64,000 bases of DNA from contig NW_021825194.1 in the NCBI RefSeq assembly GCF_006345805.1, positions 62,001-126,000 on the forward strand. Direction: 5' to 3'. Shown here piece after piece: positions 3,665 to 63,371 of the stretch. The position numbers and the translations under genes are program-made. How positions within the stretch are numbered: the stretch's first letter is position 1; the number at the start of each line of letters is the position of its first letter. Origin of the DNA: Octopus sinensis (Eukaryota). The notes under the pieces were generated by a model. The model saw only the letters and a list, made by a program, of their open reading frames with translations, searched no databases and was not told the origin of the DNA.

Positions 3665-5875
3665 GTTTAAGTAATTGAGATTCAAGTGAGTTCTAATGAA
3701 TTCACTTGAATATGGTCCTTAACTAGGATGCACCGGAAATCTATATGGTGTTAACCATACGACAAAGTGGGGTGATTACAAATAGGAAAAAAGCAACAAG
3801 AATGGATCAATATATCGGTACAATTGTTTCGTACGAGGACATCTTTAATAAAGCGACAAAAATTGCAGTAAATATAGGTGGCTCGTACTCATCAGCCGAA
3901 AAAACATCAGAGATTCCCAAACATCAAAAGGGGTAATGTTACACTTATGAAACACCATGGAAAATTCTATAAAAGTGAGAATTTAGATAACATAATTGTT
4001 TTTTTAAGAGTTCAATTAGTATTATACAGGTTATTAAAAAGTTTTTTCAAAACATCCTAGTTTTCCAAAGAATGATGATACTAATGAGGGTGTGAGTTTA
4101 ACTGCATTGAAGAAAGTTCGATTCCTGGAGATCCGATGAAAGGTCTTGAACTTACAGAATATGTGCTTGTCCATATATGGTTCATAGTAAATTGTTAATC
4201 AAGCTATGTGAAGAAATTTTGGATACAATCGTGCAAAATTTCTGAGAACTGCTGTATTATAATCCGAGTAAGAAGCAAAGCGACAGTCTTTTCGTGTAGA
4301 GGAACAGATTGTTATTGAAATTTACAAGAATCACAGAGCTAAGGAAGAAAGTTGAATTTTACCAGTTACTGCTATTAATTGCTATAAAAAGAGGGAACGG
4401 GAAGCTAAAAGGGAGGGACACAAGTTGTTACTATAAGAAAACATCTAAGCTTATTTGGTGCAAAATTCGAACTGAGGTCATTTAATTTATTTCTTTATTT
4501 ATTAATGTTACTATTAATAGGTTGTCAGGTTACAATGAGAGGTCAGAAGAAAAGAAAAGAAAAAGAAAAAAGGAGTTATTTTCTAATGAAACCATACAAT
4601 TATATTATATTATATTATATTATATTATAATAGGTTTGGGATTAGCAGAATTAGTTATTAGTGTAAAAGAAACTAAGAAGTTTAACTAACTAATTTCCTA
4701 TAAGTAGGTTAAAGTGAAATAGACTAAGAAATAGAAAGAAAAAAATTTAAATTATCTACATAGTCTAATAGAATTAAATCAAATAACTTAAATCAATAAG
4801 TATCACCAAGTACAGTTAGAGAGAGAATATAATCATAGCTAGTTAGATCGTATCTGTCTAATTAAATATATAATATAATATATGTAGGAGTAAAGTTTAA
4901 TTCAAAGTGATTTTATACAAAGTGATTTTAATATATACTGTTATCAATTAAACCATCATTTAAAATATTTAAGAGTCCTAGTTCGAGCGTGGATACAAGA
5001 AATTCCTAATTCAATCCTGCTGTTCAATAAAATTTCATTATTTTTTCTATACTTTAATATTTCAAATGTTTCCATGGAGCAAGGTGGACAACCTACTCTG
5101 CTATTTTAATAGGGTATCGCTCTTCTAACTAATTCCCAATTAAGGTTATATTTGATATTATTGTCTTTTAGTTCCCAAATTTTACTAGAAAGAGTGGTGC
5201 TATCAGCTTTATGACGTAATCTGAAGGAGGAAAGATGATTAGTAAATATTTTCTTAAAGTTTATGGTACATCCTACATAAGTGAATTTATTATTATCTGT
5301 GGTTATGGAGCATTTGCAAATTATGTTATTTAACCCACATAAACTAGGCGCCGGGCATTTTGATTTAATTCTACAGTTACATCTAGGGGAATTATAATTT
5401 GAGGATAGAAGTCTCATACTACTGTTGCTCGAAACATTGCGGGTATATTTTTCATGGTTTTGGTTATTGCTGCTATCTAAAATAATGTTATCATTATTGT
5501 AGTTAATATTATTATCTAAAGTAGTATTATCATTTATTGGTATTCTTACATTTTCATTTGGTTCTATAACCCTACTTTCATTATTAATAATGTTATCATT
5601 ATTGTAGTTAATGCTATTATCTAAAGTAGTATTATCATTTATCGGTATTCCTACACTATCATTTGGTTCTATAACCCTACTATCATTATTAATATTGTTG
5701 ATGCTGTTAGTATTGTTGTCGGTATTGTTTTCTAAATGTGTAGTGTTATTGCAGATAACATTGCTGTCCTCATTCACTGTACTTACATTCCTGGTATTAT
5801 TAGCAATTCTATAGCTATTGGTTATACTTATTATATGACATTCATTATTCACATTCTTATTCACATTCTTCTTCA
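3665..5875 (-). mobile_element. Penelope-like element, 3' part (Asn-rich linker, CxCx5C, GIY-YIG endonuclease, 3' region with hammerhead)
   Basis: ORF 5106-6023 contains CNCRIKSKC...YVGCT..NFKKIFTNHLSSFR...STTLSSKIWELKD...WELV; hammerhead at 3815-3899. Confidence 0.85.
3815..3899 (-). ncRNA. Type I hammerhead ribozyme
   Basis: Minus strand: TCGG-CTGATGA-GTACGAG...CTCGTAC-GAAA-CAATTG-TA-CCGA; stems I and II perfect, palindromic stem III, GUA cleavage triplet. Confidence 0.9.
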
Positions 5876-7085
5876 CTAATGGTTCGTTCACTTGTCTGTG
5901 TTCCAACGGGGTGGTAAAGATACTTTTGAACTGGTCATTCAGCATCTCACTGATCTTAGTTGGACTGTCTGTGAGGGAGCCATCCTTTTGGAGGAGGTGT
6001 CCTATCTTGCAGTGTACTGACACTGTTTCTTTTGTGTAATGAAAGAAGGCCTTTGAGTTTGATTTAATGTTTTTGTAACCCAGGCTTCTTTGTCTGCTTT
6101 CTCCCTCACATAGGATTGTTGTAGCCTTTTTTCGATCTCCATCAGTGTTTTTAGGCGGGACGTTTCGCTACTTTTGGGATGTTGGTCAAGACGATTTGCA
6201 ACCTTCGTCCGTCGTTTCATGAGGATCTCCCTGTCTCTTGGAATCTTGCTCCTATTTGTTTTGGCCTTGTGCTCTGGGACATATTTCTGGCATACGGCTT
6301 GCACAGGAGACATGAAACATTCTAGTTTCATGTCAATGTCTGGTGTGGAGAGACATTCCGGCCAGTCCTCTCTGAGGATCTCTTTTTGGATCGATTTCCA
6401 ATCTGCTTTGTGGAAGTTCAGATTGGAGAGATTTCGGGTGCTTCCTTTAGGCTTTATGTCTCTAGTTACTTTCGGCCCAAACATAGACAGCTCTATTATG
6501 TTGTGATCCGAAACTAATGTCGGTGTCACTTTCACATCATGAATGATGTCCATATTGTTCGTGAAGCAGAGATCCAGAATGTTATTCGCCCTAGTTGGTT
6601 TGAGTACAACTTGCTCCATGAATAAGGCGTTGGTGAGGTTGAGCAGGGACTCCACCTGTACTTGCTTGCAATGATTCATTCCTGAGAGTATGAGACCTTC
6701 GGGCCATTTGACGTTGGTGAAGTTGAAATCACCCATAAGAAATATGGTCACGTGGTGTTCCAGATTCATGAGGATTTCTTTAATTCTTGTGAGGCAATCT
6801 TCAAACTTGCCTATGTGATTTGGAGCATCCGGTGGGCAATATGTATTGCATATGACTATATTATGTTGTCTTATGTATACAATTAAAGTGTCACATACTG
6901 AATTTGAGTATGTCATTAAGACCTGGGGTGTGAAGTCATCTCGGATGTATACAGCAACTCCACCATGGCTCCTTTTCCTTCTGTCTGTTCGCAGTATGGC
7001 ATAGTTTGGTATGTGTACTTCTGCGTCCTCTATATCAGGGCTGAGGTGAGTTTCCACGAGTGCTATGCATAGGGCTTGATTGCAT
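5876..7085 (-). mobile_element. CR1-group LINE segment (APE endonuclease and linker)
   Basis: ORF 6002-7213: IALVETHL, HGGVAVY, TYCPP, LMGDFNF, NILDLCFTNN, SDHNII; homologous to 1-1500. Confidence 0.92.
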
Positions 7086-7745
7086 GGATCATAAGAACAT
7101 TCAGAACCAGAGATAAGGAAACCATGATGGTCCTCTAGCGGACATTCGTCCTCATTACTGCTCACAGCTATGGTTACCCACCGGTGTGAAATTAACAGCG
7201 GACCTTGAAGCAAACCAGATAAGATTCGCGAAGATCGTCTCTTTGCAACAGCTCAGCTGCTGGGAAAGGTTGAAACAGCTAAGACTCTACTCCCTGGAGA
7301 GAAGACGGGAGAGGTATGCAGTAATATATGTCTGGAAGATCCTGGAAGGAATTGTGCCAAATTTTGGCATTGTAAGCTACACCAATGCTAGAACGGGATG
7401 ACACTGCATAGTGTCAAAGATCCCAGCAATGCCATCACGCTTCAGGACCAACTACTGCAACAGCCTGGATTTCAAGGGCCCACAGCTTTTTAATATTCTC
7501 CCAAAGAGTCTGAGGAACTTGCACAAAGTAGATGTAGCGGTTTTTAAATCAAAGCTGGACATCTTCCTGTCGAGAGTCCCAGATGAACTTACCTCACGGC
7601 AACAGGTGCAAATGAGAGTAGCTATATCAAACTCCATTCTTCACCAAGTGACACATATTACAGGAGGTTCTTCGTAATAACAGTGTAGCACAAAACGGCG
7701 GTGCATCAGCATGGCTGCAGCTCTGAGCTGAAACAAGAAAAAAAA
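7086..7745 (+). mobile_element. CR1-group LINE 3' end (ORF2 C-terminus and tail)
   Basis: ERLKQLRLYSLERRRER...GPQLFNILP...FKSKLDIFL, followed by the conserved tail hairpin and A-run. Confidence 0.92.
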
Positions 7746-8026: not shown

Positions 8027-8159
8027 TCCTTACAGCTGTTTCAACCTGTGGTCAAGAGCCAATTCAACTTATGTTGCCTATAGATGTCAATGTATTATGG
8101 TTTTATGCATTAAAGATTATACTTGTATGTAAAAATAACCAAACTCCTCGTCAGAGGAT
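8027..8159 (-). ncRNA. Type I hammerhead ribozyme with long stem II
   Basis: Minus strand: TCCT-CTGACGA-...-GAAA-CAGCTG-TA-AGGA; stem II imperfect (TGGTTA/TGACCA). Confidence 0.7.
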
Positions 8160-10146: not shown

Positions 10147-11472
10147 AACCCCCTTATATCAAAATATATAAATACATAAATATTCATATACAAATACATA
10201 TATCATACATATTATACACTTATACATAGATATACAAAAAATAATATGCCCATAATCCTTTACAATTTTGTATTCCTAAATATAATAAAGTAAAAAAGCC
10301 CTCAACAACTATTTATATATATTTTTAAAGGGTATTTAGAACTAAGCATTATTTGTATCTAGAGAAAGTATACGCCAGTCTATGAAGGCATGAGACATTC
10401 CGTTTCTGAAGATTGTTAATAATTGGTGAATTAGCCCTAATTATAAAGAAAATATCGTTTATGCATAAAGAGCATTTTCTATTCCTATTATTATATGCTG
10501 GTGCAGATGTAAGTATTTTCCATTGCAAATTATAATTGATTTTTTGTCCTTAAGCTCCCATATATATGCACTTAACTTGTAGAATTAATCCTATTCTTAT
10601 TTTAAAAAATATATCGGTGATAATTAAGTCTCTGTTTCAAATTATTCTTAGTAGCCCCAATATATAATCTATTATCATATTGTGTACTTACTATGCATTG
10701 ATATACTACCTCCTTTTTTCAAGCAGTCATTATTGAACACACAATTTTCCTTAATTCTACAATTGCACCTATTATCTTGTTGTAAATGCTTAACTTTATT
10801 ATGATTACTTGCTGCTGTGTTCTTATCAATATTATTATTATTAATATTATTATCATTATTACTTATTATTCCCATATCCATCGGCATATTATCATTGATA
10901 ATATTGCTCCCATTTATGTTATATTTTACGTTATTATTATTATTACTACTACTACCTATAGTTTTATTATTACTAATTCCATGAATATTACCCATGCTAT
11001 TATTAGTCGTTATAGCATTATTATTACTATTGCTTCCATTACTATTACTAGTACCGTTATAATTATTATATCTTACGTTATAGTGAGACACATTATTGCT
11101 ACCTAAATTATTTTTTCTATTTAGATAGAAATAATCAAGTTTTCTTATTATTAATTGAGGATATGATGGTGGCCAGATTATGAATACGGCTGTATCCTAT
11201 TCTAATAGTTTTATTATTAATTATGTCACAATATTTGTTCTTTCCTTCACCAAAATGCTTGTTTGTTAAATTGAAAATATTTCCAACTATGTTAGTTTTA
11301 ATTTGCATAGCATATGGAATTATTAACCACAGTGTATCAGTAACGTTATATTGAGTACACGGCTGATCCATATTATTTACAAGTACCCTATTCCTCTTAT
11401 TTCCTCTGTACTTTCTATAATCATTATATATATATATATGTATATATATGTGTATATATATATGTATATATA

Positions 11473-11912: not shown

Positions 11913-12400
11913 AATATATATGTATATATATATGTATATATGTATGTATATATGTATATATATATATGTATATATATATATGTATATATGTATATATATA
12001 TGATGGTGGCCAGATTATGAATAAGGCTGTATCCTATTCTAATAGTTTTATTATTAATTATGTCACAATATTTGTTTTTTCCTTCACCAAAATGCTTGTT
12101 TGTTAAATTGAAAATATTTCCAACTATGTTAGTTTTAATTTGCATAGCATATGGAATTATTGTATATGTATATAGATGTATATATATATGTGTGTATATG
12201 TACATCATCTCCAAACCTTCCAATATATATATATATGTATATATATAAATAGTATATGTATATATATATATGTATGTATGTTTATATGAATGTATATATA
12301 TATATATATATGTATATATAAATATATATGTATGTATATATATGTATATATATATGTATGTATGTATATATATATATATAATATATGTGTGTGTGTGTGT

Positions 12401-14400
12401 GTGATTGTAAATTTTTACAAATTTCACTACCAGTGGTCTAGCATGTATAAAAAGTCAATAGACGACATATTATTCAATATAAAAGAGTGTACACGCAAAC
12501 ACAAAGAGAAATTACCTATAACAGGCAATTTCTACACGCTTGGAGACAGTCAATACGACCGAAAACCATAAAAAATTTAAGCACCATTCTAGTGGGGTTT
12601 TCAAATCAAAATAAGTTCCTTTGTGGGGAATTTTAGTCATTTTATAGTTTCGTAGTGGTGGGGAGGAATGTAAGACAGTACAAGAGGGTGAGGTGGATGA
12701 GAAGAAAGTGAGAGAGAGAACATGTGTGTATGTGTATGTGTATGTGTGTGTGTGTGTGTGTATGTGTTTGTATCTGAGGTGAGTGCTAAAGAGAAAGAGG
12801 GGAAGGGAGAGGGAAGAAGAAGGAAATAATTTTTTTGGTCTGCTTGACAGAATATTGACTCCAAGGGGATTCTAAGAATTTCAGCTTTGACCACTTCACA
12901 GTGTCGCTGAGTGTGTGGTGGCGGGGAGGTAGGCCATAATATTGACTCCAAGGGGGTTCAAAGAATTTCAGCTTTGACCACTTCACAGTGTCACTGAGTG
13001 TGTGATGGCGGGGAGGTAGGCCATAAATTATATTTCCTTTTATCATTGTGAGGATGGTCAAATGCCTTTTTGGGTTTTTAAGAATTCTTTCCACTTTGTA
13101 TGATCGTTTTGTGGAGGTGTGTGTGTGTGTCTCTGTGTGTGTCTCTGTGTGTGTTTGGGTGTGTGTGTGTATGTGTGTGTGTGTGTGTGCATGTGCGTGT
13201 GTCTGTGTGTTTGGAGGAGAGAGAGAGACAAAAAAGGAAAAAGAAAAATAAGGGAGGAAGGGGAAAACTATGTTTATATATATATACATAGTTGGCCAAA
13301 AGTTGCCTGACAGTAAATCATATACTATATACATATACATATATATATATATATACATATATGTATGTATATATATGTATGTGTATATATATGTATGTAT
13401 ATATATGTATATATATGTATATATATATATTATGTATGTATGTATATATATATATATAATATATGTGTGTGTGTGTGTGATTGTAAATTTTTACAAATTT
13501 CACTACCAGTGGTCTAGCATGTATAAAAAGTCAATAGACGACATATTATTCAATATAAAAGAGTGTACACGCAAACACAAAGAGAAATTACCTATAACAG
13601 GCAATTTCTACACGCTTGGAGACAGTCAATACGACCGAAAACCATAAAAAATTTAAGCACCATTCTAGTGGGGTTTTCAAATCAAAATAAGTTCCTTTGT
13701 GGGGAATTTTAGTCATTTTATAGTTTCGTAGTGGTGGGGAGGAATGTAAGACAGTACAAGAGGGTGAGGTGGATGAGAAGAAAGTGAGAGAGAGAACATG
13801 TGTGTATGTGTATGTGTATGTGTGTGTGTGTGTGTGTGTATGTGTTGTATCTGAGGTGAGTGCTAAAGAGAAAGAGGGGAAGGGAGAGGGAAGAAGAAGG
13901 AAATAATTTTTTTGGTCTGCTTGACAGAATATTGACTCCAAGGGGATTCTAAGAATTTCAGCTTTGACCACTTCACAGTGTCGCTGAGTGTGTGGTGGCG
14001 GGGAGGTAGGCCATAATATTGACTCCAAGGGGGTTCAAAGAATTTCAGCTTTGACCACTTCACAGTGTCACTGAGTGTGTGATGGCGGGGAGGTAGGCCA
14101 TAAATTATATTTCCTTTTATCATTGTGAGGATGGTCAAATGCCTTTTTGGGTTTTTAAGAATTCTTTCCACTTTGTATGATCGTTTTGTGGAGGTGTGTG
14201 TGTGTGTCTCTGTGTGTGTCTCTGTGTGTGTTTGGGTGTGTGTGTATGTGTGTGTGTGTGTGTGCATGTGCGTGTGTCTGTGTGTTTGGAGGAGAGAGAG
14301 AGACAAAAAAGGAAAAGAAAAATAAGGGAGGAAGGGGAAAACTATGTTTATATATATACATAGTTGGCCAAAAGTTGCCTGACAGTAAATCATATACTAT
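12401..14400. repeat. Near-identical tandem duplication, period ~1076 bp
   Basis: GTGATTGTAAATTTTTACAAATTTCACTACC at 12401 and 13477; each unit has an internal ~85-bp duplication; differences are almost only in microsatellite length. Confidence 0.95.
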
Positions 14401-14759
14401 ATACATATACATATATATATATATACATATATGTATGTATATATATATGTATATATATATGTATGTATATATTGTATATATGTATATATATATATATATG
14501 TATGTATATGTATATATATATATGTATGCATGTATGTATGCATTTATGTATATATGTGTACATATAATAATTATTTGAGGGAATATTAATCCTAACTTAC
14601 AGGGAAAAATTCAATTTAGAAATAATAAATCAAATTTCACACAATATAATACATATATATATAAATAAGAAAAAACCACCAATAGTAATGTTTTGAGTTG
14701 AGGTGTGGTGTTATGTTTTGTTGTTCTTAGTGTTGTTGTGTCCAATTTTGTGTCTAACA

Positions 14760-15760
14760 ATTAGACACAAAAACACTAAGAACAACAAAACATGACACCA
14801 CACATCAACTCAAAACATTACTATTTATATCAACACACAACCCCAGAAACAGTGAGGCATTCAACACTATTGTGCAAACTCTTCCTTTACTAGAGTTCCA
14901 AAAATGAACGACATCCTGAAAACACACAAACTCATCAAATGCAAAAAACAGGACAAATCGCTAAAGAGACTACTAACAAATGCGAAGCTTTACAAAATAT
15001 CCACGAAACCAACGGTTGAAAAATGTGGACGCCCAAACTGTGGAACCTGCCCCAACCTGCTTCAAGGCTCGGATTTCCATTTCAAACAAGGGCAGAGGTT
15101 CACAATTTAAACTAGTTTCACTTGTGCCTCTGAGAACCTAATTTATATAATAACCTGTTCGAGTTGCGGACACAACTATATTGGACAAACGAGTATGCCC
15201 TTGAGAAAGAGAATCACTCTACATAAAGAGAAAATCCGTTTCCCGCAATACAGACAAATTCCTCTCAGTGAACACATAGAAAACTGTGTAGGTAACATCA
15301 AACCAAATTTCACAGTCTTCCCTTTCTACCAGTGCAAAGACGCAATCACTCAACTAGAACTTTTTTCATTGAAAAATACAAAACACGCCTTAATATGCAC
15401 GCATGACCAACTTTTATCTTTTTACATATTCCAATTCACGAATACATCACTGTATATAAATCCCCTACTGTACACATATATAATCCCCACCCATTACCGA
15501 AAGCTGAACAGTTATCTCCCTTACCCACAACAATAACAATAATAGCGACAACCAATTACCTCCCCTTATTTATCTACTTGTGAAGTCATTCACTCGTGAA
15601 TATCATCACACATAACATGGACAAAATTTCTTAAGAAAAAATTTATATTCAAATAAAACATAATATCATGAATAGCGATAGCGAAACCGGTCGATATATT
15701 AAAAATTATATTAAAACTATGTAAGTGTGCGTATTTTCCTTTTTTAATTTCTTAATCTAG
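14760..15760 (+). mobile_element. Penelope-like element, 3' fragment (Cys-rich linker and GIY-YIG)
   Basis: KCGRPNCGTCPNL, then FTCASENLIYIITCSSCGHNYIGQT..LRKRITLH; degenerate minimal hammerhead at 15663-15697. Confidence 0.85.
15663..15697 (+). ncRNA. Degenerate minimal hammerhead motif
   Basis: ATATC-atgaata-GC gata GC-GAAA-CCGG-TC-GATAT; first core box has two mismatches to CTGANGA. Confidence 0.5.
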
Positions 15761-15769
15761 TTAAAGATA

Positions 15770-16381
15770 TATCCTTAAGACTATCAAATTTATCTGCGAA
15801 TGTCGACATTTTTAAACAAAAAGCGGAATTTTATAATACCGCCCTGTCAAAAGCCGGTTATAGGGATAAGGTAACATATTTCGACCCGGCCCATTCTAAA
15901 CTAATATTTGCCTCTCAGGATAAGAAAACTAATAACAATAGAAATAATGTAATTAATGATTTCAACCCTAGCAACGTCGACACTAATATAATTAACGAAA
16001 ATAATGTACGGACCAGGGGAGGTAATCGAAAACCAACACCAATTCTACAACACAGAAATACTCCCTTTAATGTAAATGTTAGCACTCTGAGCTATTCTAA
16101 GAAAAAAAACTATATCTGGTTTGTCATTCCTTTCGGGAAACAAATCAGGTCTAACCTCTCTTTACAATTCCGTGAAGCCGTAGCTAGGAACTTTCCCAGG
16201 AATTCTAGGTATTACTCAACTATCAATTCGCATAAGGTGAGGATTGCATTTTCCAACACTAGAAACCTATCGGAGATAATTGCCTCCCATAATAATAAGC
16301 TGCTAAATAAGGATTCATCACCCAGGAGTAGCGACACTGCCCTTACCAATTCCAACATAACATATAATAATAATAATGATG

Positions 16382-16462
<81 letters not shown>

Positions 16463-17880
16463 TATAAAAGTATTGATATTAGCAACGTCCATAGCAGCAC
16501 TGGCGTTAACAATAGTAATAATGATAATAATATTAGCCGGATTATTAACAGTGGTGGTGTTAGTGGTGATAATAACAGCATTTCCAATAACAGTTGTATT
16601 ATTGATGATAACAGTCCCAGCATTCCTATAGTCAGAGAAATTGCCGACGATATTACAATTAATAGTAATGATAATAAGAGGAATAGTATCGTGGCCAATG
16701 CTAGCAACAATATTTACACCTATCATAATAAAAACTCTGTCTTAGTATCGGATGTTAACCCCAACAGATTAAAGTTCCTATCCAAAAATTCCAAAATTAG
16801 AAACACCATTTACCAGTGCAAAATTTCTTCGGGAACCGATGTCTTCTTCTACATTGGAGCAACTTCTTCTAAATTAGCCCAAAGGATATCCAACCATTAT
16901 TCAACTTTCAGAGATAAGAAAAAACAACACAGCACGGGACTAAGTAAATTAGTTTGGCGTCAGAAGGACGGCAATACAACTTTCAAACTGGAATGGTCCA
17001 TATTGTCGGTGTCCTTCCCGTTTGACAAGGGCAGAAAACATTGTGGCGTCTGTAATTCCGAACTTTTTCATATTTTGTTCGCCAAAGTCCCTTTAATAAA
17101 TACAATCGTCGAGAGGTCCTACAGATGCATGCACTGGCAAAAACACACCTTTCAATCATATGAATAATGATTAATATAGATAGCCCCTTGAATTTTAATT
17201 AATATAACCCTTTTTTATATATTTCACCCCCATAGACAAAAAATTCTTTTTATACTTTCAAAGAACTACTACCCAATCCAGTGAGGTATGTATTACCTTT
17301 GTCCCTATACCTCGCCCTCCTCTTTCTCTCTCTTTCTCTCTATCTTTCCCTCTATCTATAGTAAGCACAATCAAACACACAGACACAAACCGTTCACCTC
17401 ACCACTGTCTGTTTTCTGACACCCACCCATCCACAAACACATTCACGCACACACATACACACGCACACATTAATGCCGTTATATACAGTCACACACAGAG
17501 ACACTCATTCACAAAAGAAAATTCACCATTCATTTGAACTGCACCCTTTCACCTTCCTATTCTTATGCCTCTCTTCTTCTACTTCGTTTGAACCCTTGAA
17601 CCTTTAAAACCTTCTAGAATCCTCTACATCCATCCATTTTCACGTCACTCCTTATAAAGGAATTTTTTAAAGAGACACTCATTATCACTATGGGCTCCGT
17701 GTGAGCAGTCATCTAAAAGTCTTTTGTGCATCTTGATGTTGACATAAGTTCCTTGCTTTTCCTGATGAGAAAGCGGCATAATATACTCCTTATTCCTTCG
17801 CAATTAAGAATATGCAGCCTTCGAAACATATGTCAAAAATAAAGGAATTTTGTTAATTCGTCGTTCAACTCCATTCTTTC
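15770..17880 (+). mobile_element. Penelope-like element, 3' half (RT thumb, poly-Asn linker, GIY-YIG, pLTR)
   Basis: RLSNLS...FYNTALSKAGY; IWFVIPFG; IYQCKI...FFYIGAT...RISNHYSTFR...STGLSKLVW...CGVCNSE...CMHW; hammerhead at 17751-17847. Confidence 0.88.
17751..17847 (+). ncRNA. Type I hammerhead ribozyme
   Basis: CTGATGA (17762)-GAAAGCGGCATA...TATGCAGCCTTC-GAAA-CATATG-TC; stem I imperfect. Confidence 0.78.
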
Positions 17881-17881
17881 A

Positions 17882-17972
<91 letters not shown>

Positions 17973-18202
17973 TATTATATATATATATAATATGTATATA
18001 TATATATATATATTTATATGTATATATAAGATACTAAATATGCATTAAGTGAACACTAAAAGCAATACTTAAATTATTCAATACTTTAAAATTAATTAAT
18101 ATACACAATGCTAGTACAAGTTATTAAAATTGTAATCAAAATAAGAAATGGTTCAAATATAGACAAACTCATTAAATAAGCTAACTATATAATTAATATA
18201 TG

Positions 18203-18856: not shown

Positions 18857-21527
18857 CTAAATAAACAGATATAAGAATTAATATCTATCGTAACATATAA
18901 AAATGATATAATGGCGAGAATTATTTGCTAATGGAAAGTAAGAAACATTTAAGCCCCATAAATTAAAGAAAGATGCAAGAATATTAGAACCAATGAACAA
19001 TACACTATGAAGATTTTCAATCACAATCACCAGTCCACTACAAATCCAGTCAATAACAATAATAATAATAACAACGATCAAACTCAAAATAATACAAGAT
19101 CCAAATAATATTGATAAACAAACTATGTTACGAAGTTCAACGATTAAATTAATCTATCTGGATTTTAAATGTATAAATATGTTTTAGCGTTTAATTAATA
19201 TATCCAATGCTATTACCAGTCATGAATAATACACTCAAAAATAGGAAAAAGTTCAAATATATACAAATCCATTATATAAACTAATTATATTATTAATATC
19301 TATGTGTAATATCTATAGATTTAATACTTCACACGATATTAAAGTTAAACATAATATTAATATTATTTAAAATAAAAACTAATTTACTTAAATGTAATAC
19401 TACTTAATAAAAATATTACCTAATTATTAAAAAATATATAGCCTAACGAAACTAATTCTCAAATTAAATTATATGGAAAACGTTAAATTGCTACATAAAC
19501 ATTAAGATATCATATCTAATATCGAACTTGAAAAATAACTATCAAGAAACTATAAATGAATAATAATATTACAACAACAATAATAATAACAACAAAAATA
19601 ACAATAATTTCAAATCCAAAAAGATTCCAAATTCAAATGAAATAGATAAACGATAAAATGAAACTTATCTTGGCGAAGGAAACTAGTAACTGAATTTTAA
19701 ACGTAAGATAGTTAAAGCGTTTATAAAATTTAGCGCGTGAAGACTTAGTGCAAAGAAATAGAATAAATACTCAATGAAAATGGCAAATTTTTTTATCAAT
19801 GAAAAATACGAAAAAATATTTAAGCCTCATGAACTAAAGAAATGTGATAAAAAACACAACTTATGGAGAAACTACCATGAAGACACCCAACTACAACTAA
19901 CCGACCCCTATTAATAAATCGATAACAATATTAACAACAGCTAAATATTAATCCCAAAACAATACCAAATCCAAACGAAATGGAGAAAAGAACGTTGCTT
20001 AGTTAGCTGAGAAAGTATCACTAGATTATAAACGGAAAGAATAGTTCTTAGCGTTTATAAGAAATAAAAGGCGTGGAGACGATGCGTAGAAAAATAGAAT
20101 AAAATTATTAATGAAAAAGACTAAAAAGAATTTATTAATGAAAAAAACGGGAATTATTTAAGCTTCATGAATCAAAGAAAATTAATAAAAATAGTAAAAA
20201 TAGTATAAGTATTACTTGTTCATCAAAACTACCTGGACCCTACATCAAGCCGTACGCGATTATTATTATCATTATTATTATTACTATTATCATTATAAAT
20301 ATCATTATTATTACCATCACTACCACTAACCCAAACCACAACAAACCGCCAACGATCGCTAAATTAATTCACAGCCTACATTCAACCCTTCCAATATTCT
20401 CCAACACATGAAGCCCAAACTCATCTCAAACTCACCATCAACAAATATTATTCGTCATTTTGTTTAAAATATTAATATAACATATAATAATATAGTAAAA
20501 TATACTCTAATACTATTAAATAATATCTACAATAAATAAATAAACCACATAAGACGAAATAAGGTTTAATAATACTAAAGATAAGTTAAATGTAATATGT
20601 AGGTACATAAAATTAATATAGCATTTAATTTAAATGACTATTTACTTTAAATTTAAAGTCTAAATAATAAGTAATTCAATCAACTACATATATATTATGT
20701 TGAAATTAATTTATATTACTATAATAAATTTTTACTTAAAAATAATATAATTATTTATTCATTAGCTAAATCTATTATAAAGGTACTTTAATTTATGTTT
20801 ACATTTAACTTTACGTTCCTCCAAAGAGTTAAACAACGCATAATTGTTATGAAATAATATTTCCTTAAATTCGATATTACAAAGAGAACAATTATTTTTC
20901 CCTATAGTATACGATTTAGCCTTACAAATAATATCCCAATTTAATTTATATTTAATAGATCTAGATTTAAGGTCTCAGATATATTTACTGAGACCTGTTG
21001 AATTTATAAGATTTTTATTCCCAAAAGAATACATATGTTGAGAAATTCTAGTTTTAATTTTATTCAAAGTATTTATATAAGTAGTATTTAAATTACGATA
21101 ATTCAAATTCTTATCATCTATTATAGTTACCATACACCTATAGACTACATTATCTAAATTACAATAATTAGTAAATTTAAATGTAGACTTGTTCCTACAT
21201 GTACAATAAATTAACTATTGTTCTTTATTATTATTATTTGAATCGATATATAATCTATCTTTATAAAATTTCTTTAATTTAAAAATATTACATGAAGAAA
21301 TAATATTACCAACATTATTAGTAGTTGAATAACCAACTCCAAAATTATCTTTAGAAAAAAATATTAAAATATTTTTTATTATCCCTAATAAATACTTCAA
21401 TTATATTTAAAATCTCTTTAATAAGATTTGTTTTAACCTGAGCCCCAAAAGGAATGATTAACCAAATTTTATTTTAATTTTTATTGATAATTATGTTTTA
21501 TATTATGATTATAATTATAATTATAAC

Positions 21528-21600
<73 letters not shown>

Positions 21601-31125: not shown

Positions 31126-31182
<57 letters not shown>

Positions 31183-31740: not shown

Positions 31741-31764
31741 ATTATTATTATTATTATTATTATT

Positions 31765-32401: not shown

Positions 32402-32459
<58 letters not shown>

Positions 32460-37859: not shown

Positions 37860-37894
37860 GTTTCCGATTAAGAGCTCCGCTCGAAACGTTAAAC
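37860..37894 (+). ncRNA. Degenerate minimal hammerhead-like motif
   Basis: GTTT-ccgattaa-GAGC tcc GCTC-GAAA-CG-TT-AAAC; first core box mutated. Confidence 0.45.
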
Positions 37895-43457: not shown

Positions 43458-45527
43458 CATACATATATATCTATTTATACACATATATGCATATATTTAC
43501 ACCCACGCATGCACGCACACACACAAACACACACACAATAATGAATCACAAAAGAATATCATTTATATAATTATATTCGTTTGCTTACGGCCGTTTCAGC
43601 AAAGAGAATAAAATAATATTTTATAATGAGTACTGCTGCATATATGCGCAACAACCACAGACATATATATGTTTATATATGTGCATAAGTGTGCCTGTGT
43701 ATTGTGTATGTACGAATGTATGTATGTGTATGTGAATTTTTTATTTTATTATTTTATTTTCTCACCATGAGCATACAGGGAACCATCTTGAAGGGTTTAG
43801 TCGATAATTTCGATCCCTGTACATTTATTAAATGTGGTGCTTATTTCATCAGTGCCTGCCTTTTTTCAAGGGTGCTGGATTACAGGGACGCAAACAGACC
43901 CACATGTGTATATTGGGCTGTCAGATAAATTCGTTTGTGTTCTTCCAGCTATTTCAATCTTTACTTTTCATCAATAATTTGAACAAATCACTCAAAAGAA
44001 TTTTCTCCTTCATTGTTCACGACTCCTTGCTAACGTTCCAGAAACTTGTGAATGCTTGAAAGTATAAAACCCTCGGGTCTTGATTCGAAGAATTCATTGA
44101 GCCATGTTTTCAGCTCCTCGTTGTTGTTAAAGGTAACGCCTTCAAGACTGTTGGGGAGCTACCGATAAAGGTGATAACCATTATTTTGTTAATGGTGGAT
44201 AAAATGTGTGTAGAGCGCAAAACTATATTTATGCAAATATCATCAACAGACATTCGCGCACTGACATATGTATATGTTATATGCAAATATATAAAGAAAA
44301 CCTTCTGAACAATTAAAATAAGCATTAGAAAATTTTACTTCCGAACCTCTATGTAATCGATACTTGATAAAATGAGCGTCAAACCATGTAACAAGCAAAA
44401 AAACAATGATTTTATTAAATATTTAGTGAGACTGAACTAGTGGTGTGACAGAAGATATTAATAGGAATGATATTTATTCTAAGAGATGAGGAAGAAAAGA
44501 GCGTGTGCACTATAGTTAGGAGTTAGTCAGTTGGGGAGAAATTTGAAAAGTAAAACATGATTACTTGAAAGCTCTTGCTGGATGTCTCATATAAGCAAAT
44601 GTAATGGATGGAACTTATAATAATGGTAAATAGACATTTAAAAGTTTTTATCAAACGATACAGAAGAATAAAAGTAAACTTGTGATGACGAGGTACGGTC
44701 GTATTGGTCCGAACTCAAAAAGTAGTGCCCGGAGAATTTTTGTGTTTATGAGCATTATATACCATAATGTGCTCATAACCCATTTGCATACGTAAATCAA
44801 AGAATTTCTTACAGCAGTTTAATACAAATGTATCTACGGAAACCGGTATATTATGGGGATCCACCAGAAACCAGTCTCTGCTCAATGAATGTGATACGTT
44901 TACAATGGTTTCTAATGTACGCTCGAAGTATTGTAACATGAGAAATCGAACAGAAATTATGAAGTGTGTGTGTGATAAAGTTGACAGTAGCTAAACTGAA
45001 TGCCATACGTGATAAATATCTAGTTTATTAAAATTTCGCTCGCGAATTGGGAAGATCTAGTAGTTTCACGTTGAATCAACTATGTTTAAGGACAGTTGTG
45101 GACATGTCTTTCAACCACAATTTCACTTCATTGGCATAACATTGTATTTATAGTCTTCACAGTTTTCGTCAACCAAATTACGCCCGAAGTATTGGTAAGA
45201 TCCGAGGTGATGCTAGAAAACACTTCTCCAAGGTTACGCACATTAAGAAGGAATTTGTAAACGCATGACTTCGAAGTGAACCACACAGATGCGCTACGTC
45301 TCAGTCTGGTCTTGGAACACTTTGCACACTCCACTGTGCGTGCAGACTCCCTAGTATTCATCATGGGACGCACATGAATATATTCTTTTGAAATTATCCC
45401 TTGAAAATATAAATTATAAATTAGTCTTCAATAATATCAAGAAATTTCAAAAATGCCGGAGAAATACTTATCAAATTCAAATTATTCTAGTTTGCTATTT
45501 TTCTATCCTCATAGTTCTTATGTCTTT

Positions 45528-52829: not shown

Positions 52830-52948
52830 ACTTATTTACATTATTTACGTTGGACGGATATGTTTCCTCATCGTGTTTGTTGTTACCACAACGTTTCGGC
52901 TGATTTACTCTCCAACCTTCATCAGGTGTCCTGGCACAATTTTGAATA

Positions 52949-53045: not shown

Positions 53046-54540
53046 ATGAAGGAAAGGATCAGGAGAGAATGTTATCGCGGAGTAAGAGTAATACTCAAGA
53101 CAGAGCTGAATGCGAGAAACAGGATCGAAGCGATTAATGCTTTAGCCATACCAGTCGTGACTTACAGTTTCAATATCGTTAACTGGTAAATTACTGAAAT
53201 ATGTAATCTTGACAGAAAAATACGAAAACTGTTGACAATGCATAGAATGCACCACCCTAAGGCAGATACACAACGACTTTATCTGCCAAGAAAAGAGGGA
53301 GGCCGTGGACTTTTACAACTGGCAATAACAATGAAGATTGCTACAATTGGCCTCGACACCTACCTGAAAAACTCTGGGAATTGGATGTTAAAACTTGTCC
53401 CAAAACATGAAAACAAGAAAGCATCATACTCAGTAACAAAACAGGCAAAGGAATATCTAAGTGAATTCCGAATACAACAAATTTCGGAATTAGACATACA
53501 AAAAACGAGCAGAGAAAATGCTAAACGCATGAAAACCCGTGCTAAAACTGCGGCTTTAGATATTCTGAATGATAAATGGCAAGAAAAACCTCTCTATGGC
53601 AAATATCCAAAGAGAGCGAATAATGCAGATGTTGACAAAGCCCTGACCCATCAATGGCTCATGGCCTCTGGCTTAAAATCTGAAACAGAAGGGTTTATCA
53701 TAGCAGCTCAAGATCAATGCCCACCAATAAGAAACTACCAGACCAACATATTAAAGAACGGCAGTAGCCCAACATGTCGTGTATGTCAACAACAAAATGA
53801 AACTATTGATCATGTTGTCTCCAAGTGTAGTCTTCTTGCGCCTACAGAGTATCTCAACAGGCATGATAGAGCTGCACAATATATTCACTGGGTAATTTGC
53901 AAAAACCTGGATTTGCCCCATGATAAAAACTGGTGGGAACACAAACCACCTCCAGTGCTTGAAAATGACCACATTTCACTCCTCTGGAACTTCACCATTC
54001 AAACTGACAGAAAGATAGATACAAATAGGTCAAACATCATATTGAAAGACTTCAGACAAAGAACATGCCTCCTCATTGATATGACTGTCCCAATCGATAT
54101 AAACGTATCTGTCAAGACCTACCAAAAACTGAGCAAATATAAAGATCTTGAAATAGAAATCAGCAAAATGTGGAAGCTGAAGACTAAAACAATACCTGTT
54201 GTCATAGTTGCCCTGGGAATGATAGCGAAAGGGGCTGATTGCTACCTATCTCAGATACCAGGAAACCCAAAAATGGCAGAAATTCAAAGATAGTGCTCAT
54301 GGGAACTGCTCATATCCTACGCAAAATACTTTCTATGTAATCTCAGGGTTTAAAACAAACATAATTTTCGTGTTTTTTGGGGGTTTTTTGGACATTCACT
54401 AGTACAACACAAACCCCCCTCCCCCAAATATATGCCATACTAGGCATAACAACAACATGAACTTCCAGCCTGTTGTTTCTTGAGGTCTCTGGGTGAGACT
54501 TAGAGCCAACTTGTACAAATATAAAGCAAAAGTCAAACAT
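53046..54540 (+). mobile_element. 5'-truncated R4/Dong-like RLE LINE in a (TAA)n tract
   Basis: ORF 53232-54293: LYLPRKEGGRGL, IAAQDQ, CRVC...ETIDHVVSKC, RHDRAA, CLLIDMTVP...KLSKYKDL; (AAT)n on both sides. Confidence 0.93.
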
Positions 54541-55061
<521 letters not shown>

Positions 55062-55596
55062 AAATGCCCTGATGCAGTACCAGATAGTGGCTCTTATGCC
55101 ATCTGATCTTAACTGATTGGAAGTGTTATCATGTACATTGTTTTGTCTTGGTATAAAAGATGGGCTACAGCAAATATTCTGCTTAATACTATGGATTTGC
55201 TTGTCAATTGTTTGACCATAAGCAGTTGACCATGTCCCTTAGTGGCTGGCGTTATCTGCATCTCTGATCGCGGGCAGAAGTAGTGGGGGAGCATTAATAA
55301 CCGTGTGTTGAAAGGAATTCATAGAGGTTTGGATAATTCACCTCTGGAAACATAGGTGGTTCGTTCAACATTCTTAAACAATCCTTATTCAGGGACCTTT
55401 TGAGCGGGATGGGTTACTCGACCAGAAGAAATTTCTAACTGGGCCCCACCTGTAAGGTCATGTGCTGTTAATCTTGATATGAGATTACCATGTCACGCAC
55501 ATATGGTTGTGATGCATGTGCCTAGTGTACCCTTATCATTCGGGTAGTCATGATGGCTATATTGGGCTTCGTATATTTTACCCCACTCTCTCACTC
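55062..55596 (+). mobile_element. Unclassified ~550-bp element, copy 3
   Basis: Reverse complement of 31183-31740; (AAT)n on both sides. Confidence 0.8.
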
Positions 55597-55633
<37 letters not shown>

Positions 55634-55669: not shown

Positions 55670-55790
55670 GGTTGGGTTCAAAATTCCACCAGGATACCTG
55701 ATGTAGGCTGGAGAGTAAATCAGCTGGAGCATTGTGGTAATAACAAACAAGATGAGAACACATATCCGACCAATGTAAATAATGTACAGA
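55670..55790 (+). repeat. Decayed copy of the 52830-52950 hammerhead repeat
   Basis: GATACCTGATGTAGGCTGGAGAGTAAATCAGCTGGAGCATTGTGGTAATAACAAAC. Confidence 0.7.
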
Positions 55791-56074: not shown

Positions 56075-56990
56075 ATCAAAGAATCCCATAAATAATGCAA
56101 TTTTTATACTTCTTCAAAATTTAGATATTCAAAAATTTTTTTTTTAATCCAAAATATACTCTCCGTCATTTTCTACAATGCTCTTCACCGTGACGAAAAA
56201 TACTCCTCCATTACTGTTCTGACCTCGTCTACAGAATTCATATTTTTTCCGTCCAAATGATTTTGAATAAATGATAATCAGATGGGGCAATGTTCGGCGA
56301 ATATGGTGGGTGGGGCATCGTTTCCCATTCAAACTACTCCAGCCTTTGGAATATCATCCTCGCTGTATGTGGCCGCGCATAATCCTGATGGAAGAACACT
56401 TTTCGTATTGAAACCAATGATGGTCGTTTTCCTTCTAGCGCTGATTTAAGCCGCTCAAGCTGCTCGCAGTAGATCTCCTTTGTTATCGTTTGGTTTGGGT
56501 TTAAAAGTTCAAAGTAGACTAAACGTTTCATATCCCACCAAACAGATAACAACACCTTACGTGGGTGAAGACTCTCTAGCCTGGGCTGCCGGTGTTTCTT
56601 CTTTCCATACCCACTGCCTTCGGCGCTTGATATTTTTATAGAGAATCCATTTCTTGTCACCAGTCACTATTCCGTCCAAAAACGTGAGACGTGACAGCAA
56701 AGACGAGTACACATTCACTTTCTGCTCGCGATTAGACTAGGAACCCATTGATCCAATTTACTGACTTTTCCGATGGCACGCAGATGTTGATGAATGGTTG
56801 ACTGACCAAACCCAAGCTTCTCTGCTAGTTCCTCAACAGTTACGATGGGATTTTATTCCAGCAGAGTTTGCAGGACGTAGAACAAGGTAAAATTACACCC
56901 TGCTTTTACAGCAAGTTGATACAGGTAGTCTATCCCATTCCGACTCTTTGTTCATGCAATTAAAAAAAACATTATTTATGGGATTCTCTC
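56075..56990 (-). mobile_element. Internally deleted mariner with terminal inverted repeats
   Basis: AGAATCCCATAAATAATG (56080-56097) / CATTATTTATGGGATTCT (56970-56987); LHPRKVLLSVWWD...YCEQLERL...FHQDYARPHTA. Confidence 0.9.
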
Positions 56991-57329: not shown

Positions 57330-57611
57330 GTTCACTTTCAGTTCATGTCACTTATATAATAGTTTCACTATTAAAGTGAAAGCATTTGATATTACAAAAT
57401 AGAGATGCTTTTGTTTCACTTTTGACACGTAATACTGAAATAGTGTAGAAGATATGATATTGCTGTGGGCTCGCCCTAGGCAAGAAGTTAAAAATGACAC
57501 TACATGGACCCTAAGTAAGTCATGTGTAAAGTTTAAATGAAATTGGTTGTGTAGTTCTCAAGTTTTAGGGATCCACACAGACAGACACACATTCTCAGTT
57601 ATATATATAGA
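57330..57611 (-). mobile_element. 5' part of a non-autonomous Helitron-like repeat
   Basis: Minus strand A|TCTATATATATAACTGAGAATGTGTGTCTGTCTG, same 5' architecture as 2970 and 40650. Confidence 0.55.
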
Positions 57612-57966
57612 TATATATATATATATATATATATATGATATTAGTGATTATATCCAAACTTACAGGGAAAATTAGATTTAGGATTAAATCAAATTTCACA
57701 GTATAAATATAAATATAAATTAAATTAGAGATAAAACCACTATTAGGCAACTCAAGCAGTGATAGACATAAACCAATACATAAATAACAAAAAATATAAA
57801 TATAATTAATATAATATATAATATATATATAGAATATAAAATTTAAAATTTAAATTTTTATATTTTTATATTTTTAAATTTAAAAATTTAAAAATGTAAA
57901 AATTCTTAAATTATTATTTTTTTAAACCAAAAAGTATAAAAAAGTATAAATATAATATAATAAGTA

Positions 57967-58062
57967 AAACACTACGTACGTTTCATGGCTATAATTAAAT
58001 TCGAATTACCATTAAGTTTAAATTCAATTGAAAATTCGAATTATAGTCAATCTTCAGGTTAA
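57967..58062 (-). ncRNA. Type I hammerhead ribozyme in the 3' pLTR
   Basis: CTGAAGA-TTGACTATAATT...AATTATAGCCAT-GAAA-CGTACG-TA-GTGTT. Confidence 0.82.
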
Positions 58063-60056: not shown

Positions 60057-60779
60057 CTAAATTATTATGAATATTAAATAATATTTCATTAAACTCACTA
60101 GAACACAAATAACAATAATACCTATACTATATGATTTGGCCTTACAAATTATTTCCCACTTTAAGTTATACTTAATACGTTGGGATTTTAGCCCCCATAT
60201 GTATTTGCTAAGCCCTGTAGAGTTAATCAGGTTTTTATTTTTAAATGAATTCATATGTTGTGCGATTCTTAATTTTATTTTAGAGGAAGTTGATCCTATA
60301 TAAATGGCGTTTAAGTTATTATTATTCCTATTATTCTCATTAATTAATGTAACTATACATTTATATACAACATCGTTTAAATCACATTTATTATTAAATT
60401 TACACTTAGTTTTATCTCTACATGTACAATCAATGAGTGTCTTATCTTTATTATTATTGGTATGATTATAAAATTTTGTTTTATAAAAATTGTTCAACTT
60501 GAATTTGTTAAAAGAAGAAATAATGTTACCTACATTATTAGTGGTAGAATAACCTACTCCAAAATTATTACTAGAGAAAATTTTTTTATATTTACAATTA
60601 TCTAAATGAATTGTTCAATAATATCTAAAATCTCTTTAATAATGTTAGTTTTAACTTGATCCCCATAAGGAACAATTAACCAAATTTTCTTCTTCTTCTT
60701 CTTCTTCGTCTTCTTCTTCTTCTTCTTCTTCTTCTTCTTCTTCTTCTTCTTCTTCTCTTCTTCTTCTTATATTATTATA

Positions 60780-60827
<48 letters not shown>

Positions 60828-61132
60828 TTTTTTTTTCTTCCTTCAAATTTGCTTCCATTTCTTGCCGAGTGTCTTCCCGACTCCTAGGGCAAAGAAACTC
60901 ATAGTATACATTGGTAGGCCATTAAACCAAACTCAATAGTTGGTTCATTTTTTTTTTTTAAGTTAAATTAAAATACATGAGCAGCAACAGTTCTCACATC
61001 GACAATGCTCTTCTCAATACGTGTGATGTACCAGTTAAGACAATCTTTTGCACTTCTTGCAGGGATGGTAAGCCAGGGATCATTCTCATATAATTTTCGG
61101 TTTCCTTCTTGATCATTCCTAGTGCTCCTACG

Positions 61133-61210
<78 letters not shown>

Positions 61211-62883
61211 GTTATTATTATAATTACCATTACGATTATTATATTTCTTTTTAATATTATTAAAATTAAATTTATAATTATAATTATCATTTATTGAATT
61301 AATATTAAAATTCGTCTTATTTCTATTTTTATTTTTATCTTTACTTTTATAAGTACTACAATTATTAATATTACTACTAATATTACTACCATGATTATTA
61401 TAATTATTATTGATATTAATATTTTAAGTTTTATTAATGAATTTAATATTATTATTATAACCTGCCTCTCGCAGGGCTTCATCATAATAAGGTGCATGTT
61501 TACTGAAAATCTCTAAATCATTAGAAAGTAATGTTATTCGTTTACTTATATTATTTATCAACGATTTTTTAGTTGATGGTGGGTGATTACTATTAACATT
61601 TATATATCTAAGGTTTTCATTAAATTTATGATATGGTTGTGTTTCACCCGTTATTAGATTAAAATTAACACCTAAATTATTTACATTATAGTTTTCATTA
61701 TATATAGTAATACTTAAACCATATCTTTTAAAGAAACTATAAAGTTTCTTCTTATATAATTCTAGTTTCCTATTAGTACAATTCTTAGTAATTAATAAAA
61801 GGTCATCCCTATATAAACCATCCTCTAGTTTTAAATTTTCTAATTGAAGTTCAGATAATATATAAATACCTACCAAATCCGTAGCTTGTGCAGAATCGGG
61901 TGCCCCCATAGGTATATCAAAATAGTCTCTAGTATCCTTCCTAGCCCATAATTTATCATTGTATCTAATAAACGATTTCCTAACCATTTTAATTACATTA
62001 ACTTCGTCAATAGTCATTCCTACCTTATTCATTGCGTATATTAGGGCCTTATTAAACACAATTTCATTAATAGAAGAAGAATAATTATCTATATCTATTT
62101 GAATAACTTTATATCGATTTTTTTCTTTAATATTATTAAACCAATATTATTACTAAACCATAAGTTTAGGTAGTTTAATTAATTTAATTTATTAATATAT
62201 TTATCTAAAATGAGTTTACTCAATTTACCAAAGTCTGATTTACATGGACAAATTAATCTAACTTTAGGATATGAATAAAAATTATCTTTATGGTCTTTCA
62301 AAGTAATTCTAGGGTGCATAGGTACATAAGGTTCAGTTTTATTATCCAACTTATAGTTCATCATGACTAATTTAGAGGCCTTGTTTACAGTATAAAGTAT
62401 ATTATCTGGAACAATTTTATGTTTTTTAATTATCTCTTTCTCTAAAAGGTTATCATATGATTTAACATCCAGTTTAAATAGATTCCTAGTTTTATCTGAT
62501 TGTACAATAACACCATCCATATTTCTCATTTCTTTAATTCTAATAGCTAAATTTCTTAAATATTCATTATGTCTGTTTGGGTATTTATGAAATTTAATAT
62601 TTTTCACCACCTTCCAAATATTATCTTCTAAGATCTGTAAATCCCTATTATATGGGGGTTCTTTTTTAGATTTAAAATTTGAAGCAAAATCATTATAATT
62701 CATAATATCATAAAAATTAGATATATTATAGTTATAATGGTAGGCTTTCCACTTAATGCTAGAAACAAAATACTTAATATTATTAATAAGTTTCAAAATA
62801 TATTCTTTCCTAGAGGGTATTGGAATATCCTTCAAAGATGAATTCCAAAATAGCGGTTCTATCTTACCTGTAAGTTCCATCAC
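60057..62883 (-). pseudogene. Penelope RT-GIY-YIG polyprotein (frameshifted, interrupted)
   Basis: Colinear ORF fragments highly similar to 21685-23334. Confidence 0.9.
60827..61132 (-). mobile_element. 3' fragment of a Dong-like LINE nested in the Penelope (TAA)n linker
   Basis: IVGALGMIKK...LQEVQKIVLTGTSHVLRRAL* plus 3' UTR hairpin; (TTA)n on both sides. Confidence 0.85.
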
Positions 62884-63371
62884 ATACGAAATAGAGATAA
62901 TACACTCAATAGACGTAAGCTATCAATATAATAATTATAATAATAATAATATTAGGAATTATATCCAAACTTAGTGGGAAAAATTAGATTTAGGTTTAAA
63001 TCAAATTTCACAGTATAAATATAAATATAAATTAAATTAGATATAAAACCACTATTAGGCAACACAGTGATAGACATAAAACAATACACAAATAACAAAA
63101 AATATAAATATAATTAATATAATATATAATATATATATATAAGATATAAAATTTAAAATCAAAATTTTAAAATTTAAAATTTTTATATTTAAAATTTTAA
63201 ATTTTTGACTTAAAAATTTTTTTAACCTAAAAGTATAAAAAATATAAATATAATATAAGTAAAACACTACGTACGTTTCATGGCTATAATTAAATTCGAA
63301 TTACAATTAAGTTTAAATTCAATTGAAAATTCGAATTATAGTCAATAATAGGTAAATATATATAAATCCTT

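Follow-up and report, generated by a model that had tools for sequence, protein, structure and literature searches.

A 64,000-nucleotide stretch of the Octopus sinensis genome (RefSeq assembly GCF_006345805.1, contig NW_021825194.1, forward-strand positions 62,001–126,000; hereafter the window) contains ten sites that an initial annotation read as hammerhead ribozymes linked to Penelope-like elements (PLEs). The annotation proposed that each family has a different palindromic stem III, which could act as a code restricting dimerization and processing to RNAs of the same family. Does the palindrome mark the family, or is it what two identical RNAs need in order to pair? Our analysis favours the second answer. 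We consider it probable that these are type I hammerheads in the terminal repeats of PLEs, in which the stem III palindrome pairs identical copies and its centre drifts by compensatory change, without forming a barcode. The feature is real and very abundant; its cleavage is predicted.

Hammerheads of Penelope-like elements

Sites are named here after the position of their palindrome (Table 1). All ten palindromes lie where the annotation placed them, each with GAA directly 5′ of it. The CTGANGA core, described for all sites, is intact upstream on the same strand at six of the ten (3820, 8032, 52890 and 57974 on the minus strand, 17826 and 37411 on the plus strand), lost by truncation at 36117 and 63269, and variant at 15686 and 37885. 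The AACGTT sequences at 37885 and 52890 are also in position, but the palindrome usable for dimerization is really ACGT (A15.1-C-G-U16.1), as in the published minimal motif. The inserts between core and GAA, noted earlier as 55–100 nt, measure 54, 58, 66, 69 and 105 nt.

Within the window, the claim of a different palindrome for each family is false. The 36117 and 37411 elements both carry ACGATCGT, yet are not joined by self-comparison of the window, and the 37885 and 52890 families both use ACGT. The 52890 repeat family is distinct from that of 37885 and has a second decayed copy at 55677–55786. By the same self-comparison, 37411 and 57974 belong to sister subfamilies (66% over 914 nt) with different palindromes, and 63269 and 57974 lie in the two terminal repeats of one element (57611–58051 against 62926–63346, 88% match). 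An Rfam scan of the window returned 88 matches up to E = 5 with no hammerhead among them, missing all ten sites, probably because long inserts and a loopless stem III fall outside the models.

The link to PLEs was borne out by the motif together with its location behind an open reading frame (ORF) for a GIY-YIG endonuclease. This terminal-repeat position, on the same strand as the ORF, is direct for 3820, 8032, 15686, 17826 and the pair 57974/63269, and follows by homology for 37411; an ORF link was not found for 37885 or 52890, and none is seen for 36117. Hydra-clade PLEs are defined by DKT, RWK-like and CxCX5C motifs and a C-terminal endonuclease (Craig et al. 2021, PMC8557442; this and the other papers cited are drawn on in part). 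The window ORFs 21688–23439 and 60060–62919 contain DKT, KWKA and CxCX5C, and 5106–5390 also has CxCX5C. Behind the 20768–23439 ORF, no hammerhead was found within 3.3 kb downstream. The 15686 motif lies behind the ORF 14824–15536, the product of which is 75% identical to a protein with reverse transcriptase (RT) and endonuclease, P0001.

Across the genome, 131 of 192 distinct endonuclease hits, pooled from three endonuclease searches and targeted fetches, have a candidate hammerhead on the same strand 0.34–3.0 kb downstream; for the other 61, none was found within reach. From the 131, 125 endonuclease–hammerhead pairs entered a quick tree. Six loci were excluded beforehand: L312, L365, L375 and L396 (motif of another family), L364 (weak, chance-like match) and L434+ (endonuclease cut at the locus edge). 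All trees were built only from endonuclease regions of the O. sinensis genome. Judged from their motifs, the carriers appear to be mostly Hydra-clade PLEs.

Abundance in the genome

We counted the pattern core–insert–GAAACNNNNGTH in the 2.72-Gb genome, with reversed patterns as control. Inserts of 8–38 nt gave 19,727 matches (control 1,529), those of 45–75 nt gave 39,110 (1,436) and those of 76–106 nt gave 10,593 (1,338). The three classes thus span 8–38 and 45–106 nt, leaving out 39–44 nt. Summed over them, the form with an 8-nt palindrome has 69,430 matches against 4,303 reversed, or 8–27 times control per class; the 6-nt form has 7,210 against 3,213. This amounts to about 65,000 pattern matches above controls, across many lineages of one genome. 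Among the first 30 sites listed for each 8-nt class, 58 of 90 are perfect palindromes and 10 more are completed by G·U pairing; base composition predicts 8% perfect. Hammerheads are also found in a tandem repeat of 558–560 bp (loci L091–L098 and L118–L120), with one ribozyme per unit, ACGTACGT as palindrome and a predicted cut after GUU; its organization would fit a non-LTR retrozyme.

Stem III is predicted to form between two copies

In a single copy, stem III would consist of two pairs closing four bases, at +1.4 kcal/mol, and its pair probability is at most 0.05 in all five complete long-insert copies of the window. Two identical copies are predicted to form an 8-bp homoduplex of −6.4 to −11.1 kcal/mol. 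A single copy would therefore not hold stem III, and two identical copies would combine into a double hammerhead able to cut the element's own RNA. In a tandem transcript, the second terminal repeat may usually serve as partner. With an identical partner supplied in this way, only self-complementarity would come under selection.

The topology of the double hammerhead has a further consequence that the initial annotation did not consider: stem I would likewise form between the two copies, and may be what chiefly keeps unrelated families apart. Stem I has 4–6 bp in lineages B and C and 2–4 bp in lineage A, and both stem I and stem II show two-sided changes. Dimer dependence of PLE hammerheads has been published (PMC4209133; PMC6765202), and the double-hammerhead arrangement also appears in the legend of Fig. 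S8 in PMC3088659.

Palindromes are conserved within families and shared between them

Lineages were defined as similarity groups of the ribozyme region in global alignment, some of which may be distant kin. The 416 distinct sites compared comprise first-listed sites and family-targeted fetches, a non-random sample. Self-complementarity is maintained across families despite their differing sequence, as the annotation had noted for the window: 309 of the 416 sites are perfect palindromes. Nor does the palindrome vary at random within families. It is identical in 26 of the 29 nearest copies of 3820 and in 18 of 29 for 57974, where 10 of the other 11 differ by CpG-type transitions only.

The proposed family code finds little support beyond this point. 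Twenty-seven lineages have at least two copies, and in 23 of these a palindrome core (the central four bases) is seen at least twice. Ten perfect palindromes are shared among the 23, with AATT, GATC and AGCT in five lineages each and GTAC in three; 36 of the 253 lineage pairs have a core in common, and 11 of the 16 possible perfect cores occur among the 309 perfect sites. Cores also arise repeatedly: on the endonuclease trees, lineage B passes from AATT to GATC twice, once as a nested clade and once beside a GATT clade. The states of lineage C are ATAT, ATGT and ACGT, and those of lineage A are GATC, GTAC, AATT, GATT, ATTT and GCGC-like. States with a G·U or U·U pair have themselves amplified and are established across whole subfamilies, GATT being carried by 14 of 33 copies and by 11 of 15, and ATTT by four of five. 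For the G·U states, predicted pairing with either neighbouring state is no weaker than in the less stable homodimer.

Moreover, no faster change of the palindrome than of the other stems was detected. We counted 16 changes in the six pairs of the palindrome, 25 in the 12 of stem I and 40 in the 18 of stem II (fixed registers, FastTree trees, singleton states omitted), that is, 2.7 changes per palindrome pair compared with 2.1 in stem I and 2.2 in stem II (binomial p = 0.46, a test of low power). Separation may lie elsewhere: among the 36 lineage pairs with a common palindrome, a cross stem I of at least 3 bp is available on both sides in one and on at least one side in 12, so that stem I distinguishes 35 of the 36. 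The palindrome is thus more likely something that pairing requires than a barcode of the family. It behaves like an RNA helix that purifying selection maintains and that drifts via tolerated intermediates, and lineage-specific pairing is likely to be a by-product of stem I and stem III. A weaker specificity of this by-product kind is plausible, even with the barcode reading mostly unsupported. No published account of a palindrome code or of heterodimers for PLE hammerheads turned up in the literature searched, which leaves out most subscription journals, and the code hypothesis was not met in the consulted parts of Craig et al. 2021 (PMC8557442).

Weighing of alternatives

Several points weigh against a dimeric, self-cleaving ribozyme whose palindrome merely drifts. 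In lineage A, stem I is weak at 2–3 bp and stem II begins with a U·U pair; in all five window copies, the fold favoured by free energy is not that of a hammerhead. Published PLE hammerheads cut weakly, dimers included (PMC4209133). Genomic copies extend across the predicted point of cleavage, which means that their templates had either stayed uncut or been joined again. The outer AC..GT was fixed by the search patterns, so that the palindrome pairs tested are the inner ones. Finally, equal rates are compatible with mild positive selection, since every palindrome change comes at the cost of two pairs and the rate comparison is of low power. Two further points would suit another function. Cleavage by the Anolis Poseidon ribozyme needs the element's protein, and insertion in vitro can do without the ribozyme, its mutants still inserting (PMC11167929); the inverted copies of lineage B stop 37 nt behind the predicted cut site rather than at it. 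The motif might accordingly be maintained as a folded signal that the element's protein recognizes, for binding, RT start or splicing control, with cutting minor and the palindrome bringing RNAs or ends together. The 37885 family, amplified to at least 12,440 copies, has C at core position 4 in about 59 of the first 100 listed, and the lineage A intron acceptor lies 12–14 nt before the core, both in keeping with such a signal. We nevertheless regard it as unlikely: the catalytic 3–8 pair covaries (C–G, U–A, A–U) across related elements, as expected under selection on the active fold, and core and NUH are retained in tens of thousands of copies.

An equally doubtful proposal is that palindrome switches were favoured in themselves. 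Stem III palindrome and stem I would then form a two-part pairing address for lineage-specific processing, and a switch would insulate a young subfamily from trans pairing with relatives or parasitic non-autonomous repeats. If true, this would be a ribozyme-built kin-recognition system among dozens of coexisting Penelope lineages. There are indeed sister groups that share stem I and the stem II base exactly and are set apart by a two-sided change in the palindrome (AATT/GATC with TCGG/CCGA; GATC/GTAC with TAAC/GTGT or GTGG). As the initial annotation supposed, mismatched palindromes are predicted to be penalized, by 4.0–8.4 kcal/mol for switches between perfect states, and stem I and palindrome jointly separate the 35 of 36 lineage pairs mentioned above. 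However, no rate excess was detected, and a single palindrome can persist through the divergence of many subfamilies: ATAT is found in 32 of the 43 rows of lineage C, and AATT in 27 of the 43 of lineage B. The 558-bp tandem repeat and the 57974 Hydra family both use ACGTACGT, states are bridged by wobble subfamilies, and with a cis partner in tandem transcripts trans pairing may rarely matter. Least probable is that the switches are a mutational artefact, in which two-strand CpG decay turns ACGATCGT into ACAATTGT with no need of selection. Transitions do make up most switches, departures in the 57974 family are mostly CpG transitions, and one listed copy of that family has regained a palindrome, ATGTACAT (ACATACAT being non-palindromic). 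Yet states are fixed by clade (the 26 of 29 AATT copies; a nine-row GATC clade with 99–100% support), which largely refutes this explanation. In addition, GATC is nested inside AATT on the trees, the opposite of CpG decay, and transversion switches are present (GATC/GTAC, TGCA/TCGA).

The pairing requirement that we prefer can be probed with natural material: the series AATT–GATT–GATC and ATAT–ATGT–ACGT occur in ribozymes that are otherwise near-identical, and provide ready-made pairs for examining both the dimer model and specificity.

The long stem II

The long insert reported earlier is real and folded (45–105 nt), as judged from fold z-scores and alignments. Compared with shuffled sequences, the inserts of 37411 (z = −5.7) and 57974 (z = −3.2) fold well and that of 3820 weakly so (z = −1.5); those of 17826 (z = −0.3) and 8032 (z = +1.6), both decayed copies, fold no better than shuffles. 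Alignments of non-redundant copies (RNAalifold consensus folds, RIBOSUM scoring) give a rod of 19–28 pairs with internal loops and 87–91% of cells paired. Two-sided changes occur in 3 of 21, 8 of 19 and 5 of 28 pairs of the rods, counted over related rows without a shuffle control. In lineage A the insert varies from 16 to 93 nt and the basal pairs are constant, which suggests that the length of stem II is not essential. The long form is missed by Rfam and would escape short-loop descriptors too, and animal hammerhead counts may therefore be too low. No published account of PLE hammerheads with a long stem II turned up in the same literature.

Variant cores and a 3′ intron

The Neptune-type 15686 family has at least 562 genome copies, with none in the control. 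By eye, 98 of the first 100 rows listed have A3 together with U8 and none has C3 with G8; the related loci L013, L027 and L247 have a U3–A8 core with the same ACCGGT. From the copies compared, A3–U8 is a fixed compensatory family state of the 15686 element. The change creates an AUG within the core, possibly the element's start codon, with a donor-like GTAAGT following after 53 nt (15663–15726, plus strand). The single longer relative found lacks its N terminus, and genomic copies finish in a short tail. U3–A8 cores have been reported (PMC4209133); neither A3–U8 nor a mapping of palindromes onto trees was met in the parts of that paper drawn on, and no published account of a natural A3–U8 hammerhead turned up in our search. 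Such a core would be the third natural 3–8 pair. Two further repeat families (L293, L294, L313, L356 and L433) have the U3–A8 core TTGATAA with the palindrome ACATGT. In the 37885 family, copies with T at core position 4 may be products of CpG decay (the C4 fraction given above was counted by eye).

In the main branch of lineage A, a GTAAGT...TTTTAG intron of 1.4–2.6 kb in the 3′ region has been precisely spliced out of five of 27 copies (L319, L320, L328, L337 and L339); it ends 12–14 nt before the hammerhead core. The same donor is found in nine unspliced copies, L318, L323, L333 and L335 among them. Spliced and unspliced forms have thus both been retrotransposed, and the precise splicing indicates that the hammerhead strand is the transcribed strand in lineage A. 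The intron of Drosophila virilis Penelope also ends just before the hammerhead (helix I), with spliced and unspliced forms (PMC4209133, Fig. 2C); in lineage A both forms are genomic.

Relation to known hammerheads

The closest match is with the metazoan PLE pseudo-long-terminal-repeat (pLTR) hammerheads of Cervera and De la Pena 2014 (PMC4209133), which share the type I topology, the short stem I, the palindromic 15.2–16.2 and loop 3, the predicted dimer dependence, the many sequence families per genome and the mostly truncated single copies. Sites 37885 and 52890 are textbook minimal motifs of that study, with an unpaired base before stem II. The difference lies in stem II, described there as 6–8 bp, whereas folded inserts of 45–105 nt dominate the octopus 8-nt class.

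The Hydra-clade PLEs of Craig et al. 2021 (PMC8557442) have the C-terminal endonuclease, the DKT, KWKA and CxCX5C motifs, (TA)n targets and a hammerhead near the 3′ end in common with the octopus elements. Their File S2, which includes one Octopus element, shows stem III differing by family, with several families sharing one. Its Hydra entries have a loop 2 of 3–10 nt and a stem III of 9–10 nt with a 1–3-nt loop, in contrast to the 8-nt perfect palindrome and long stem II of the octopus sites, and are under about 3 kb in length, compared with up to about 5 kb in octopus. Repeat-type dimeric hammerheads (Perreault et al. 2011, PMC3088659; the newt and axolotl retrozymes of PMC7229834) in many cases likewise have a palindromic stem III and loop III enabling a dimer, with weak cleavage as monomers and stronger as dimers, but combine it with a short stem II and loop–loop contacts, none of which were identified in the octopus motifs.

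Palindromic stem III in PLE hammerheads, the many families per genome and weak, dimer-dependent cleavage are therefore already known. New in detail, on present sequence evidence, appear to be the folded stem II of 45–105 nt that dominates the 8-nt class, the A3–U8 Neptune-type family and the precisely spliced copies. No dedicated account of octopus hammerheads turned up in the literature covered, and the role of the hammerhead in PLEs is described as open (PMC8557442, PMC11167929).

Features of the window

Table 1 Hammerheads and element remains in the window
Position	Strand	Feature	Details
3815–3899	−	Complete type I hammerhead (3820), lineage B (Hydra-type)	Stem I TCGG/CCGA, core CTGATGA, palindrome ACAATTGT
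5106–5390	−	GIY-YIG-type endonuclease end of 3820-hammerhead element	CxCX5C linker
8027–8158	−	Hammerhead (8032), 105-nt insert	Stem I TCCT/AGGA, palindrome ACAGCTGT, stem II decayed (insert z = +1.6)
10352–10767	−	Frameshifted endonuclease remnant of 8032-hammerhead element	
14824–15536	+	Neptune/Nematis-type PLE ORF, 3′ end	CxxxxCxxC linker (CGRPNCGTC), Pfam GIY-YIG E = 1.4e-6
15663–15697	+	Small hammerhead (15686), A3–U8 core (ATGAATA)	2-bp stem II, palindrome ACCGGT, stem I ATATC/GATAT
15748–17167	+	5′-truncated Hydra-type PLE ORF, lineage C	RT end and endonuclease
17757–17839	+	Hammerhead (17826), 54-nt insert	Palindrome ACATATGT
20768–23439	−	Second near-complete Hydra-clade ORF	About 80% identity to 60060–62919
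36080–36130	+	Hammerhead 3′ half (36117), ACGATCGT	Core lost through inverted duplication 35889–36173
37329–37422	+	Hammerhead (37411), lineage A, ACGATCGT	69-nt hairpin insert (z = −5.7)
37860–37894	+	Decayed minimal hammerhead (37885)	Stem I GTTT/AAAC, 4-bp stem II, palindrome ACGT, decayed C4 core
43587–43597	−	Truncated hammerhead end, palindrome ACGGCCGT	Absent from the initial annotation
52887–52928	−	Minimal hammerhead (52890)	Stem I CAC/GTG, unpaired A, 5-bp stem II, palindrome ACGT
57971–58059	−	Hammerhead (57974) in 3′ pLTR, lineage A element, ACGTACGT	66-nt hairpin insert (z = −3.2), weak stem I
60060–62919	−	Broken near-complete Hydra-clade PLE ORF	KWKA, DKT, YRDD, CxCX5C, endonuclease
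62926–63346	−	5′ pLTR of 57974 element	Cut inside stem II; ACGTACGT at 63269 without core

The 3820 hammerhead, 1.2 kb behind its endonuclease, has a 58-nt stem II insert with a 7-bp base and a predicted cut after GUA. Site 8032 lies 2.3 kb behind its endonuclease remnant and has a relative at L145. The 17826 copy carries a G>A change within stem I, which reads TTTC/GAAA in its relatives. Positions 15000–18000 are covered by contigs from four presumed-RNA runs, and the contigs of all four have G at 17835; they are uninformative on ends, strand and level. A relative of 36117, L255, retains the core, with a 77-nt insert. The truncated end at 43587–43597 has its palindrome and the start of stem I as in L125 and L134, and blastn with this end gave no match.

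Two candidates were rejected as hammerheads. A 582-bp repeat (31146–32460, 55037–55633) lacks palindrome or stem I in its window copies and in most relatives, and GAAACCGGTA at 44839 has no core, and no relatives among the loci. The 582-bp repeat is tandem, genome-abundant and located beside (AAT)n, with about 92 nt from CTGANGA to GAAAC.

The remainder of the window holds further transposon remains. Remnants of AP-endonuclease long interspersed elements lie at 300–1474 and 5908–7252 (minus strand), and a mariner-type transposase fragment at 56334–56663 (minus strand). Remnants of non-LTR retrotransposons (RT, zf-RVT) at 26345–28993 and 30452–30748 (both minus strand) and at 53190–54382 (plus strand) are adjoined by (AAT)n microsatellites. 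A direct duplication of about 1.09 kb with 96% identity (12238–14523) takes in part of the 5′ repeat of a Hydra element. Finally, a near-perfect inverted repeat of 119 nt at 14694–14812 is the source of spurious microRNA matches.

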